The notes under the pieces were generated by a model. It was not told the origin of the DNA and ran no database searches. It saw only the letters and a program-made list of their open reading frames with translations. A stretch of 64,000 nt of DNA from Candidatus Nomurabacteria bacterium (lineage in GTDB: Bacteria; Patescibacteriota; Minisyncoccia; Phycocordibacterales; UBA9973). Shown here piece after piece: positions 32,027-36,160 of the stretch. The translations under genes and the position numbers were made by a program. Positions within the stretch are counted from its first letter, which is position 1. Each line of letters opens with the position of its first letter. The stretch lies in assembly GCA_020631955.1 (NCBI GenBank), contig JACKGL010000002.1:141860-205859 (forward strand), in the 5' to 3' direction.

Positions 32027-32258
32027 GTGTCTTTATTGTACCAAGTTAGAACCTATTTCCAAAGTCGAACCTAATCGCACATCCGTGCGCTAAAGCGCCT
32101 CTGTGCGAAGCACAGAGCTTTTCCAAAGGAAAAGGACGGATATGCGAAATGCAAATGCGGAACGCGAGCGGAAAGAATTTTGCGGAGGACTGGGGGTCTG
32201 GGGGAAAGGGCTCCGCAAAATTTCCGCTTCGTGTGCTTCGCTGTTTTTTGGCTGGGCG
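32027..32258 (+). repeat. IR-A, left copy (232 bp)
   Basis: Checked base by base: the reverse complement of 33980..34211 is identical over all 232 nt. Confidence 0.95.
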
Positions 32259-32407
32259 GGCATTAAGAAAAGAAATACAATATTGAAATTTTGGCAAAGC
32301 CAAAATACATTCTTAGTTTGTGCTTGACCCACCCTCCCATTCGCGCACAAAAATTCTGCTCCCAAAAACAACTAGAAAAAGAGAGCAAAAAATGTTAAAA
32401 TTGCACT

Positions 32408-33973
32408 ATGGAAAATAATGGTTTCAATAAGATTATAAACAACATTAACGAACAAAAAGGAAATTTTGGTGAGCCCCTTATTGAAAAACTTGGTCTAAAA
32501 ACTGGCAAGGAAGTCTCTCTGGTTAAACGTTCTCTTTCCGAAAATTCTGCCATTGGTGTTGGACAAAAAATTGAGGGCAAACTTATCCGTGATGTTCATG
32601 TTGGGCTACCTATTGAATTAGAAAATTCAAACACAAGTCCAATCAAAGAAATAAAAGAGGAACAAGGAAAATATTTTGTAAAAACACTTACTTCTGTGTA
32701 TGAACTTTTTGTACAAGCACAAAAAGTGGGAAATTTTGAGAAAATTTCCCACTTACAAGATGAACTAAAACAAATTGAATCTCATTTAAGTGAACAACCT
32801 GAATCAATCCAAAAAATGTTTCAAGAAATGAAAGACAAATTTTATTCTTCGGTTGAAATAGATAATAAAAAATTTATGTTCACCCAATTAAATGGAAATG
32901 ATGTAATGTCTTGGGTTGAAGATAAAAAAAATCCAGGCAAATGGAAAACTCGTCTTTTCAGGTTTTCTAGTTCAGATCACCAATGGAAATCACTGCCCGG
33001 AGAACGCGATGACGGAAGTTATATGAAAGGTGATGAGGATAGTCCTTTGCATCATTATGTGCAAAGTGCGAAATTAGATAAGAGAATTTATAAATTGATA
33101 AATTCTTTGCCTCAAAAATATAATCATTATTCAGCACAAGAATATTTACCCACTCCCCCGTATGGAGATACCAAAGGTCATTTTTGGAATGAATTTGAAT
33201 TTAAGGAAAATTACCAAACATTAAAAAATAAAGAATGGGCTTCCTACCAAGACTTTTGCCAGAGGTTTTTTAAGGGTTATGAAAGATTTGTGATGGGTGC
33301 TGATGGTTTCAGAAATTTTACTTTAGACGGTGGTCTGTATAAATGGATGAAAAATCTTGAAAGCATTGCAGAGTTTAGAAATATAAAAACTGAACTAGAA
33401 AGATTAAACACTAATCCAGAATATGCTGAGGAGTTGAAGCAAAGCAGTCTTTGGCGAATGGAAAAATTTATCAATGATAAACCGGAAGTTAAACACTTTG
33501 CTGAAGTATACAAACAAAATATTGGTTCTTACGTTGAAAAATGTTTTAAAGCAAGATTTCCTGAAACAATGATGCCTGATTTCAAAAAATGTGTTGATAA
33601 ATACGATAAGGTTGATATTGCTGAACAAGCACAAAAAAATAATATTCATATTGAGGAATACAAGGTAAATAATCCTGAAGGAGACGAATTAGTCTTTGCT
33701 ATGGCATATGACGATAAAGGTCGAGTCTATATTGATAATATTTATGACCCAAGAGTAGAAATTAGTGATTATGGTATTCCAAGCGAAATAGTCCAAATGG
33801 GACATTTGGTTTACAAGCCAGAGGATTATAGACAACAAACATATGCAATTCCTGAAAAATATTTAAATGATAAAAATAGCCACAAGTATATTGACATAAG
33901 TGCATTGTGGGAAAATATCCCAGTGATTAAAAATTTCAAAGAAGAGTTAAGGGTGCGTGGTGTTTTGAAATAA
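32408..33973 (+). CDS. Orphan cargo protein (521 aa) enclosed by IR-A
   Basis: Uninterrupted ORF, AT-rich unlike the flanking repeats, with no signal peptide or recognised motif. Its stop lies 6 nt before the right IR-A copy. Confidence 0.6.
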   Translation: MENNGFNKIINNINEQKGNFGEPLIEKLGLKTGKEVSLVKRSLSENSAIGVGQKIEGKLIRDVHVGLPIELENSNTSPIKEIKEEQGKYFVKTLTSVYELFVQAQKVGNFEKISHLQDELKQIESHLSEQPESIQKMFQEMKDKFYSSVEIDNKKFMFTQLNGNDVMSWVEDKKNPGKWKTRLFRFSSSDHQWKSLPGERDDGSYMKGDEDSPLHHYVQSAKLDKRIYKLINSLPQKYNHYSAQEYLPTPPYGDTKGHFWNEFEFKENYQTLKNKEWASYQDFCQRFFKGYERFVMGADGFRNFTLDGGLYKWMKNLESIAEFRNIKTELERLNTNPEYAEELKQSSLWRMEKFINDKPEVKHFAEVYKQNIGSYVEKCFKARFPETMMPDFKKCVDKYDKVDIAEQAQKNNIHIEEYKVNNPEGDELVFAMAYDDKGRVYIDNIYDPRVEISDYGIPSEIVQMGHLVYKPEDYRQQTYAIPEKYLNDKNSHKYIDISALWENIPVIKNFKEELRVRGVLK

Positions 33974-33979
33974 CTGCCT

Positions 33980-34211
33980 CGCCCAGCCAAAAAACAGCGA
34001 AGCACACGAAGCGGAAATTTTGCGGAGCCCTTTCCCCCAGACCCCCAGTCCTCCGCAAAATTCTTTCCGCTCGCGTTCCGCATTTGCATTTCGCATATCC
34101 GTCCTTTTCCTTTGGAAAAGCTCTGTGCTTCGCACAGAGGCGCTTTAGCGCACGGATGTGCGATTAGGTTCGACTTTGGAAATAGGTTCTAACTTGGTAC
34201 AATAAAGACAC
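33980..34211 (-). repeat. IR-A, right copy (232 bp, inverted)
   Basis: Perfect inverted copy of 32027..32258. Confidence 0.95.
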
Positions 34212-34238
34212 CAGTATTGAACTTAGCGGTTGAGAACC
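34185..34238. other. attP-like quasi-palindromic site centred on the IR-A/IR-B junction
   Basis: GGTTCTAAC (34185..34193) and GTTGAGAACC (34229..34238) are symmetric about CAC at 34209..34211, with further partial arm symmetry. Confidence 0.55.
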
Positions 34239-34355
34239 AACCAAGGAGTGGGCGGCACAAAGTGCCGCCCACGCTGTTTCCCCTGATTTTCCAAACGCAT
34301 TTGGAGCCGCGCCTGCGGCGCGGCGCACTGTTTTTTCGCCAAGAAGCAGGTTCGA
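34209..34355 (-). repeat. IR-B, left copy (147 bp, inverted; includes a duplicate of the recombinase 3' coding end)
   Basis: Checked base by base: the reverse complement equals 35932..36078. It overlaps IR-A by 3 nt. Confidence 0.95.
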
Positions 34356-34437
34356 AATCAGAATGCAATTTTGGCATAGTATTTGCTTTGGATACAAAAA
34401 GAATTTTTGTTTGAAAATATTTTTGCTATACTGGAAA

Positions 34438-34530
34438 TGTTGTAACCAATTATTAGTTAGTCAGCAGAAAGGGCTATTCCAGATATCTTGACTAACGTTG
34501 AGGTTACAACACTGGAGTGGCCCTTTCTGC
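34438..34530 (+). promoter_or_regulatory. Structured recombinase leader with interleaved perfect complementarities
   Basis: Pairings: A 34438..34447 with 34502..34511 (10 bp); B 34456..34463 with 34489..34496 (8 bp); C 34464..34474 with 34520..34530 (11 bp); D 34478..34482 with 34512..34516 (5 bp). It ends 15 nt before the ATG. Confidence 0.5.
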
Positions 34531-34545
34531 TTGAAGAAAAAATAT

Positions 34546-36111
34546 ATGCAAAAATTCTTTTTGTATGCTCGCAAGAGCACCGATGTCGAGGATAAACAAG
34601 TGTTGAGTATCAAAGCTCAATTAACAGAGTTGCGCGCTTTCGCCAAAAATGAAAAGTTGGAAATTGTTAATGAGTTTGTAGAAAAGCGTACCGCTAAAGT
34701 TCCAGGTCGCCCCATTTTTGGCGAAATGATGAGACGAATTGAGAAAGGTGAAGTAAGCGGAATATTATCATGGCACCCCGATCGTCTGGCGCGCAATTCT
34801 GTGGACGGCGGACAGATAATCTACTTTCTCGACATCGGAAACCTTGCGAGCCTCAAATTCCCTAGCCACTGGTTTGAAAACACGCCACAGGGCAAATTCT
34901 CGCTGTCCATGGCATTTGTCCAAAGCAAATACTATGTAGATTCTCTTTCCGAGAACACGAAACGCGGACTTCGCCAAAAAGTGAGAATGGGTATATTTCC
35001 AAGCCAAGCGCCAGTGGGATATTTGAATGATAGCCGAACAAAAACGATTGTAGTTGAAAAGAAAAAATCTCGCATTGTGCGTTTGGCTTTCGAGCGATAT
35101 GTAAAAGGCAATCAAAGGTTAGAAGATATTGCAGAATTTTTGGCGAAGTCCGGTATTACAACCCGAACCGGAAAGAGAATCTCCAAAACCAAAGCGTCTT
35201 TTATCCTATCAAATCCGTTTTATATCGGCTTATTCAAATACAGTGGTGAACTCCACGAGGGGAAGCACGAGCCAATCATTTCAAAGAAACTTTTTGATGA
35301 AGCACAGGAAATGCTAAAACTTCGTGGTCAACCCGAAAGAAAACCACAAAATGAACCTCAACCATTTTGCGGTCTCATTTCCTGTGCTTCTTGTGGAATG
35401 ATGATAACTGGCGAACACAAATTCAAACGGCAGAAGAATGGGAATGTCCACGAGTACACATATTATCGCTGTACGAAAAAACGAAAAGATTTTATCTGCA
35501 AAGAATCTGCCGTTAGAGAGGAAGAAATGAATCGCCAGTTATCATCCCTCATTCAAAAAGTTTCTTTGCCTAAAGACTGGGCGGAGGAATTATTGAAAAT
35601 GGCGGAAAATGAACACAAAAACTCCGCCCAGTCTTTAACTGCTTGTGTGAAAGAGAAAGAAACGAAAATATCTGAAATTTCACAAAAGCTAGAGCGACTT
35701 CTTAACGGATATTTAGACCAAATTGTTGACGAGCAAGATTATCGAAATCAAAAAGCAAAATTATTGTCCGAGAAGAAGTCGCTTCAAGAAGAAATTTCAG
35801 ATTTTTCACACAAGCAGAATGATTGGCTCGAACCGATGAAAGAATGGATAAAAGACGCACAATCCTTGGACAAAATTGCTTCTGATGATGACCTTTTTGC
35901 AAAAAAGGTCAAAGCCAAAGAAATCTTTGGCTCGAACCTGCTTCTTGGCGAAAAAACAGTGCGCCGCGCCGCAGGCGCGGCTCCAAATGCGTTTGGAAAA
36001 TCAGGGGAAACAGCGTGGGCGGCACTTTGTGCCGCCCACTCCTTGGTTGGTTCTCAACCGCTAAGTTCAATACTGGTGCGCAGGAGAGGACTTGAACCTC
36101 CACACCCGTAA
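34546..36111 (+). CDS. Large serine recombinase
   Basis: Resolvase-type N-terminus YARKSTDVEDKQVLSIKAQ (catalytic Ser) and HPDRLARN, a recombinase domain, the zinc ribbon CGLISCASCG...YYRC, and a coiled coil. The last approximately 60 codons lie in IR-B and the tRNA. Confidence 0.85.
   Translation: MQKFFLYARKSTDVEDKQVLSIKAQLTELRAFAKNEKLEIVNEFVEKRTAKVPGRPIFGEMMRRIEKGEVSGILSWHPDRLARNSVDGGQIIYFLDIGNLASLKFPSHWFENTPQGKFSLSMAFVQSKYYVDSLSENTKRGLRQKVRMGIFPSQAPVGYLNDSRTKTIVVEKKKSRIVRLAFERYVKGNQRLEDIAEFLAKSGITTRTGKRISKTKASFILSNPFYIGLFKYSGELHEGKHEPIISKKLFDEAQEMLKLRGQPERKPQNEPQPFCGLISCASCGMMITGEHKFKRQKNGNVHEYTYYRCTKKRKDFICKESAVREEEMNRQLSSLIQKVSLPKDWAEELLKMAENEHKNSAQSLTACVKEKETKISEISQKLERLLNGYLDQIVDEQDYRNQKAKLLSEKKSLQEEISDFSHKQNDWLEPMKEWIKDAQSLDKIASDDDLFAKKVKAKEIFGSNLLLGEKTVRRAAGAAPNAFGKSGETAWAALCAAHSLVGSQPLSSILVRRRGLEPPHP
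35932..36078 (+). repeat. IR-B, right copy (147 bp)
   Basis: About 57% G+C by hand count (84 of 147). It contains perfect hairpins GCCGCGCC-GCA-GGCGCGGC and GTGGGCGGCAC-TTT-GTGCCGCCCAC. Confidence 0.95.
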
Positions 36112-36160
36112 GGGCACATCCACCTCAAGGATGCTTGTCTACCAGTTTCAACACCTGCGC
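36074..36160 (-). tRNA. tRNA-Leu (anticodon GAG), class II
   Basis: 87 nt including CCA. It aligns arm for arm with E. coli-type tRNA-Leu: acceptor GCGCAGG/CCTGCGC, anticodon loop TTGAGGT, long variable arm, T arm GGAGG-TTCAAGT-CCTCT. The last 5 nt lie inside IR-B. Confidence 0.9.

Follow-up and report, generated by a model that had tools for sequence, protein, structure and literature searches.

The question raised by this locus is what a short stretch of interleaved complementarity, placed directly ahead of the gene for a large serine recombinase in Candidatus Nomurabacteria, does for the gene that follows it. Large serine recombinases are widely used genome-engineering enzymes whose natural regulation is thought to be protein-based, through directionality factors and promoters, and the mobile elements of Patescibacteria are, to our knowledge, almost unstudied. 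In the 64,000-nt stretch of DNA analysed here (the window), the strands of four pairings follow one another in the order A-B-C-D-B'-A'-D'-C' before the recombinase ATG at 34546. A preliminary description of the window had listed these four perfect pairings with their order and positions, all of which are exact in the window sequence. On balance, and with the folds themselves modelled, we lean towards the view that positions 34438-34531 are the 5' untranslated leader of the recombinase mRNA, and that this leader would act in cis as an RNA switching between two mutually exclusive folds, thereby limiting the yield of recombinase per transcript.

Pairings in the leader and the predicted start of the transcript

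The features of the leader and its immediate surroundings are as follows.

34392-34410, plus strand: palindrome O, ACAAAAAGAATTTTTGT, upstream of or within the promoter, complementary at 18 of 18 positions to 34549-34566
34424-34432, plus strand: extended -10 element TGCTATACT, a conserved box upstream of helix A
34438-34447, plus strand: 5' strand of helix A, pairing with 34502-34511 (perfect, 10 bp)
34448-34455, plus strand: conserved internal loop AAUUAUUA between helices A and B
34456-34463, plus strand: 5' strand of helix B, pairing with 34489-34496 (perfect, 8 bp)
34463-34482, plus strand: 5' strand of helix C/D, pairing with 34512-34531 and displayed in the loop of hairpin A/B
34485-34504, plus strand: hairpin H3 (loop UAAC) of the minimum-energy fold, made of spacer, B' and the start of A'
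34489-34511, plus strand: B' (34489-34496) and A' (34502-34511), the 3' strands of hairpin A/B
34512-34531, plus strand: D'/C', the 3' strand of helix C/D, directly after A' with no spacer
34532-34545, plus strand: A-rich spacer before the start codon, unpaired in both predicted folds
34546-34566, plus strand: start codon and palindrome O', GCAAAAATTCTTTTTGT, a local 9-bp hairpin containing the AUG and the inverted partner of O
34546-36111, plus strand: large serine recombinase reading frame (Pfam Resolvase, Recombinase and Zn_ribbon_recom), its conserved part ending at about 35960

As RNA, pairings C (34464-34474 with 34520-34530) and D (34478-34482 with 34512-34516) are one continuous helix, in that the 3-nt gap between them (tat opposite gtg) pairs as U.G, A-U and U.G, and A34463-U34531 extends the whole to 20 bp. 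The crossing of an 18-bp helix A+B with a 16-bp helix C+D, as first described, stands as a crossing, whereas the length of C/D becomes 19-20 bp once G.U pairs are counted. A further hairpin, H3 (34485-34492 with 34497-34504), forms within the C/D loop. When the 93-nt sequence was shuffled 20,000 times by mononucleotide, a single perfect inverted repeat of 10 nt or more arose in 53 cases, two crossing repeats of at least 8 nt arose once and two inverted repeats of 10 nt or more never arose, in agreement with the earlier judgement that helices arranged in this way are very unlikely by chance. The folding energy is -42.5 kcal/mol for the sense strand (z = -6.7) and -33.9 kcal/mol for the antisense strand (z = -5.1).

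The extended -10 box reads TGnTAnAmT, its TAnAmT (alignment columns 1-6) being invariant in the 34 leaders aligned below, and the distance from the box to the start of helix A is 5-6 nt in 31 of the 34 sequences, the other three having been mis-scored by the search window. With helix A following a conserved -10 box at this spacing, the transcript probably begins at helix A, and its start is predicted at about 34437-34439. A leader peptide (ATG-TTG-TAA at 34437) was considered and rejected, neither its reading frame nor its start codon being kept among the aligned leaders. Inspection of the spacer at 34532-34545 found no Shine-Dalgarno-like GGAGG.

A scan of the whole window at Rfam gathering thresholds returned only tRNAs, and a permissive covariance scan of 33900-34900 against Rfam 15 gave sub-threshold matches only, the best being to a plant miRNA model with 25 bits against a threshold of 80. 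Neither the leader nor the element that carries it was found in the literature on serine recombinases, Patescibacteria (CPR), inverted repeats and invertons, in keeping with the earlier remark that no described regulatory leader was known for genes of this class.

Conservation among homologous loci and the strand under selection

The recombinase has domains PF00239, PF07508 and PF13408, all above their cut-offs, and distantly matches the A118 integrase (E = 2e-8). Its homologues number more than 7,800; among the best 120, which share 60-88% identity with it (nearly all of them 73-88%), those for which the source names an organism belong to Patescibacteria. The window sequence recurs identically in GCA_041402165.1 (contig JAWKSS010000001.1). 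Genomic loci were fetched for 80 recombinase homologues, and both flanking anchors could be located in 62. The kind of leader seen in the window, termed type 1, stands after the same conserved extended -10 box in 36 of the 62 loci; a type-2 leader is present in 11, a type-3 leader in three, further variants in two and a short leader of 62-68 nt in three. In the other seven only 20-37 nt separate the anchors and there is no leader, and because these homologues exist the leader is dispensable for recombinase function.

The type-1 alignment comprises 34 distinct leaders, in which the named structure is paired in 92.7% of cells as against 34-49% with slid partners, with changes on both sides in 24 of 35 pairs; the observed values were reached by none of 500 shuffles. 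Helix C/D is canonical in 100% of cells over 19 pairs and 34 sequences, 13 of the 19 pairs changing on both sides, and the eight inner pairs of H3 are also 100% canonical in the 34 sequences. In helix A, 7 of 10 pairs have changed on both sides; its score of 76.6% is lowered by a one-column register shift in one subgroup, and after correction of the register 9-10 of the 10 positions are canonical in 31 of the 34 sequences. Helix B has six scorable pairs, four with changes on both sides, one with variation confined to a single side and one that is invariant. Covariation among homologues had been proposed in the preliminary description as a check on the pairings, and A, B and C/D all covary in the 34 homologous leaders; far from being absent from homologues, the pairings are kept in these type-1 leaders and have a counterpart in a second leader class. 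The letters UUAUUA in the internal loop (34448-34455) are invariant in all 34 leaders and accounted for by no helix; they could be a binding or cleavage site.

The second class, type 2, has two crossing helices that are 97.7% paired, with U.G pairs conserved. Its sequences cannot be aligned with those of type 1 by eye, and a covariance model built from the type-1 alignment scores them weakly, at 37-62 bits. In types 3 and 4 (L063, L069, L079, L019 and L028) the crossing order is kept and the sequences differ, as judged by eye and unscored. The same covariance model gives 100-141 bits on the sense strand of the leaders and 34-54 bits on the antisense strand, and its matches in 600 kb lie only directly upstream of recombinase starts, including that of a second gene copy in L090. 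This second copy (L090, 4845-5060) carries a type-2 leader, and another second copy, beside a tRNA-His position (L082, 4787-6409), is found in a strain related to that of the window. With second copies in the same genomes, the element is multi-copy, and different leader classes occur in one genome.

On the pattern of substitution, the sense-strand RNA is the form under selection in the leader helices, because departures from Watson-Crick pairing in C/D and H3 are G.U and never A.C. There are about 35 G.U cells and no A.C cell in C/D and about 69 G.U cells in H3, more than 100 in the two together, each of which would be an A.C mismatch on the other strand or neutral in duplex DNA. The assignment of the leader to the recombinase gene in the preliminary description is strengthened by this signature, which, with the extended -10 box 5-6 nt upstream, formed the test of a 5' untranslated placement in which the start site itself is predicted.

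The leader is also flanked by a pair of DNA palindromes that the preliminary description had missed. The 7-3-7 palindrome ACAAAAA-NNN-TTTTTGT occurs at 34394-34410 and 34548-34564, the only two copies in the window, with the leader situated between them. The nucleotides of both copies are nearly invariant across the family, synonymous sites included, and O is present in all homologues, leaderless ones included. The upstream palindrome lies in or just before the promoter and is therefore absent from the element's own mRNA; the downstream palindrome spans codons 1-7, where a local hairpin around the AUG is predicted. The geometry of O and O' would suit a pair of operators and, equally, a fold-back that blocks read-through transcripts.

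These palindromes are among the reasons for weighing a reading at the level of DNA, in which the repeats would be binding sites for the recombinase or a repressor, the O/O' segment would be an invertible promoter (an inverton), or the repeats would be by-products of a repeat-generating process acting on the whole module. The perfect 18-bp inverted repeats of O and O', 139 nt apart, do flank the promoter, as in an inverton, and bracket the leader with it; the surrounding module is rich in perfect DNA repeats without strand bias (641 G.T against 699 A.C mispairs), and some sources annotate the recombinase as "invertase-like". We nevertheless regard a DNA-level explanation as extremely improbable, for the leader helices tolerate G.U and never A.C in more than 100 cells, and A.C would be equally acceptable in selected double-stranded DNA. 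The order X-Y...X'-Y' can be converted into palindromic sites by no inversion or deletion, and O and O' are each self-palindromic, so that their mutual complementarity does not imply a recombination pair. A search pattern matching only a flipped O-leader-O' segment retrieved six metagenome loci, all in the normal orientation with a short promoter spacer, and only one orientation was found in these six and in about 70 loci, all consensus assemblies that could hide minor forms.

Two folds and their possible outputs

The leader RNA has two mutually exclusive folds, hairpin A/B or helix C/D with H3, and each is supported by conservation: every one of A, B, C/D and H3 either covaries or remains canonical, and H3 reuses B' and the start of A' and therefore excludes A/B. 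Of the pseudoknot and the alternative conformers between which the preliminary description had left the choice, the conformers are favoured, H3 being in competition with A/B, and a static pseudoknot is disfavoured by linkers between the strands of 0 nt (between 34463 and 34464), 6 nt and 0 nt (between 34511 and 34512). By steric reasoning rather than a three-dimensional model, linkers this short do not allow an interrupted helix of 18 bp and a helix of 20 bp to form together. Of the hallmarks of an H-type pseudoknot, the leader has two supported crossing helices, but it has short linkers in place of long loops, and it has a conserved competitor.

Nearest-neighbour models, in which pseudoknots are ignored, make the C/D-containing fold 9-18 kcal/mol more stable than A/B in all 34 sequences. 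When prefixes of the transcript are folded, A/B is the minimum-energy fold for those ending at 34496-34520 and C/D with H3 is that for 3' ends from 34524 onward, and the pseudoknot-free barrier to refolding out of A/B is about 20 kcal/mol. The order of folding predicted from these energies is that A/B forms first during transcription. Fold 1 would be a 5'-terminal hairpin of helices A and B, formed once 34511 had been transcribed, and its loop would hold the 5' strand of C/D unpaired. Fold 2, the 20-bp C/D helix with H3 in its loop, would take over once 34512-34531 emerge; as the thermodynamic ground state it would free the first 26 nt as single strand, including the invariant, AU-rich UUAUUA. 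Refolding would proceed by loop invasion, in which D'/C' attacks the 5' strand of C/D where the A/B loop presents it, and programmed refolding is preferred to a static pseudoknot because the invading strand directly follows A' and its target lies in the loop. Loop invasion could make fold 1 very short-lived, and A/B might serve only as a folding guide.

This last consideration borders on a reading in which there is a static structure and no switch, either a pseudoknot in which A, with B melted, is stacked on C/D, or C/D alone as a 5' stabiliser or RNase III processing site for which A/B is a transient guide. RNase III requires a duplex of about two turns, and C/D is a perfect duplex of about that size and the ground state in every sequence; with B open, loops of 16 and 19 nt could, by geometric estimate, span the stacked helices. 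Yet B and H3 are both under selection and both incompatible with a pseudoknot of A and C/D, and the linkers on both sides of the crossing have zero length, and for these reasons we consider a static structure unlikely.

How the proposed switch would limit recombinase synthesis is suggested by what each fold would expose. In fold 1 the 5' end would be base-paired and about 34 nt before the AUG would be accessible for ribosome loading. Fold 2 would expose the 5' end to 5'-end-dependent decay and offer RNase III a perfect 20-bp duplex, while only about 14 nt before the AUG would remain open. Young transcripts would then be the main source of expression, or else those on which a factor holds fold 1. 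Which fold would be "on", and whether the output would pass through ribosome loading, decay or RNase III cleavage, are matters of inference. The earlier suggestion that C' occludes the start codon in one conformer does not hold in general, for both folds are predicted to leave the A-rich stretch before the ATG free. The second helix of type-2 leaders has its end about 13-48 nt before the ATG (21 nt in L009), and control of ribosome access cannot therefore work in the same way everywhere.

An output at the level of transcription would make the leader an attenuator, with C/D and the U residues after it as an intrinsic terminator and A/B as an antiterminator that locks the 5' strand of the terminator in a closed loop. 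The early formation of A/B during transcription would suit this, as would a long and stable C/D that is followed by 3-6 U in about 60% of type-1 leaders and by UUUAAGUUUU in type 2. An attenuator is decidedly unlikely all the same: only UU follows C' in the window, the U run is 1-6 nt long and not conserved among leaders, and the 29-nt loop is atypical of terminators. A terminator scan made no call at 34463-34540, yet it detected canonical terminators at 34306-34326. Taken as a short-loop, G+C-rich hairpin with a U tract of at least 5 in 8, an intrinsic terminator was accordingly rejected for C/D.

The invariant UUAUUA letters, which no helix explains, also bear on a reading in which the RNA acts through a partner, being bound by the recombinase (as autoregulation, perhaps by mimicry of the attachment site) or by another factor, or acting as a separate small RNA. 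The junction of A' and D' is often GCAC/CAG, like the core GCACCAG formed by the tRNA end and the repeat arm W at attachment sites; this junction does not, however, track the core of its own locus, for the element in L070 lies at a tRNA-Gly ending in CTCCA and has the junction CGCACCGAG. The leader has no complementarity of at least 9-10 nt to the rest of the element, and we know of no RNA binding by serine recombinases. We take a protein-binding or trans-acting role to be very unlikely. A guide RNA was rejected as well, the leader having no complementarity to the attachment sites or elsewhere in the element.

The mobile element and comparison with known systems

The refolding leader that we favour lies within a mobile element of about 4 kb that abuts a tRNA 3' end. 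Its larger parts are listed here.

32027-34211, no strand assigned: cargo module, a 521-aa reading frame enclosed by 232-nt perfect inverted repeats at 32027-32258 and 33980-34211
34209-34355, no strand assigned: left arm W, a 147-nt perfect inverted repeat with its partner at 35932-36078, conserved in homologous loci
35932-36078, no strand assigned: right arm Wbar, abutting the 3' end of tRNA-Leu(gag) at 36074-36160 on the minus strand

The recombinase module (34209-36078, 1.9 kb), inside which the leader lies, is packed with nested inverted repeats and had escaped the preliminary description. Each 147-nt arm begins with the tRNA 3' end CACCA and bears two G+C-rich terminator hairpins. The recombinase tail reads through the repeat arm and stops in the tRNA gene, as in all homologues (...PLSSILVP.GLEP), and the inner end of the arm (35932-36111 region) encodes the invariant residues FGSNLLLGEK. 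The cargo reading frame (521 aa, 32408-33973) has no Pfam match, and arms of this kind surround unrelated cargo genes, on one strand or the other, in other genomes. The cargo arm ends in an imitation of a tRNA T-loop and acceptor end (GGTTC-N19-CACCA). The two-module layout recurs in most homologous loci examined, some having the recombinase module alone. The element always adjoins a tRNA 3' end, and because the identity of the tRNA differs among genomes (Leu, Val, Arg, Gly, Ile, Tyr, Met), recognition of a generic tRNA feature is suggested. The tRNA-Leu(gag) of the window was detected by ARAGORN and lies below the Rfam tRNA threshold. Judged by their sequences, the junctions look like attR (tRNA joined to W), attL (pseudo-tRNA end joined to native terminator) and an internal inverted attP (pseudo-tRNA end joined to W).

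The recombinase module has the opposite orientation relative to the tRNA in L021 (3599-5527) and in L083 (1-1860), the latter an inverted module from another sample that is 100% identical to the window. It is also in the opposite orientation in L082 (1214-3275), with a copy of the tRNA-Leu gene on both sides. These differences could be real flip-flop inversion or assembler ambiguity, the orientation being possibly arbitrary because the 147-nt repeat exceeds the assembler k of 141. Many metagenome contigs (among L001-L080) end 200-500 nt upstream of the recombinase or exactly at the arms, and several contigs, 1.8 kb or about 4.2 kb in length, have repeat arms as their boundaries; with contig ends at the arms, the element systematically breaks assemblies of Patescibacteria. 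Look-ups of flanking proteins gave no element-free contig that would mark an empty site, most contigs breaking at the arms, and a phage origin found no support, viral contigs giving no exact match. Between 33900 and 36200, the repeat arms and the recombinase gene's 3' end have a G+C content of 43-54%, as against about 36% elsewhere in the window, a difference that fits foreign or structurally constrained DNA.

Within 34375-35860, the coding sequence itself carries about fifteen nested perfect repeats of 10-18 nt (for example 34965-34980 with 35137-35152 and 35282-35297 with 35553-35568), which make up 32% of the coding sequence. The inner 1,576 nt fold at -578 kcal/mol as against -368 +/- 11 kcal/mol when shuffled (z of about -19), and the other strand at -556 kcal/mol. 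Third-codon positions within the arms of these repeats are more conserved than others (entropy 0.78 against 1.20, p = 7e-13). The repeats of the coding sequence differ in kind from the leader helices because their mispairs, counted above, lack a bias of G.U over A.C, and the explanation in terms of RNA is accordingly confined to the leader. In a wider account, which we offer tentatively and hold to be doubtful, the leader would be one layer of control in an undescribed two-module mobile element of the CPR that inserts at the 3' ends of many different tRNA genes and has long perfect inverted repeats bounding each module. The self-folding recombinase gene of this element, with its nested repeats, folding of this strength and lack of strand bias, would point to flip-flop inversion or a single-stranded DNA stage; the leader would then sense or time the state of the element, for instance by binding recombinase through the mimic GCAC/CAG of the attachment core, rather than merely damp translation.

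Were the favoured reading correct, the leader would add a layer of RNA control to the large serine recombinases, one that is supported by covariation and family-wide, with more than 50 loci and thousands of homologous proteins. The interleaved design, in which segments pair as 1:3 and 2:4, is found again in several leader classes whose sequences defy alignment by eye, and the leader would illustrate cleanly, in a natural RNA, how co-transcriptional refolding can be programmed, the invading strand being aimed at a partner displayed in a loop. The element is abundant in Patescibacteria and accounts for assembly breaks at the recombinase gene. The principle of a 5' leader with alternative helices is known; the leader family, its association with a serine recombinase and the interleaved, loop-displaying design have not been described.

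Classical attenuators and riboswitch expression platforms share with the proposed switch a 5' leader whose alternative helices govern what becomes of the gene that follows. Those systems pair neighbouring segments (1:2, 2:3, 3:4) and have a clear terminator or Shine-Dalgarno sequestrator, whereas in this leader segment 2 lies in the loop of helix 1:3 and a canonical terminator is absent, as is any evident ligand pocket or leader peptide. The order of strands is that of an H-type pseudoknot (5' strand of stem 1, 5' strand of stem 2, 3' strand of stem 1, 3' strand of stem 2), but here 0-nt linkers join stems of 18 and 20 bp whose full helices exclude one another, and the competing H3 is conserved.

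Among mobile elements, the bridge (seek) RNAs of IS110/IS1111 likewise are structured non-coding RNAs immediately upstream of a recombinase gene. The enzyme in this case is a serine and not a DEDD recombinase, and the conserved pairings are internal to the RNA; an IS110-type bridge RNA was rejected on the serine recombinase domains and on the absence of complementarity between the leader and the attachment sites or the rest of the element. In IS10 and IS50, upstream sequence in read-through transcripts folds back onto the initiation region and so gives protection. Comparable here is the O arm (34392-34409): situated ahead of the predicted start, it can pair perfectly with codons 2-7 (34549-34566), and a weaker extension covers the AUG. 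This likeness concerns O and O' and not helices A-D, and O and O' are also 7-3-7 palindromes and possible operators.

The hok-family mRNAs have metastable 5' hairpins and fold-back inhibition, and share with the leader exclusive covarying helices, an ordered folding pathway and residence in a selfish element; refolding of hok mRNA is triggered by 3' processing and involves an antisense RNA, whereas neither a 3' partner nor an antisense RNA was found for this leader. In the maturation-protein gene of MS2 the final fold of the leader limits expression, and translation comes mainly from nascent RNA that has yet to refold, with no ligand involved. The final fold in MS2 pairs with the Shine-Dalgarno region, whereas here the 14 nt nearest the AUG are uncovered and the helices are interleaved as 1:3 and 2:4; the two are alike in that the final fold of the recombinase leader is also proposed to limit expression, through kinetics and free of any ligand.
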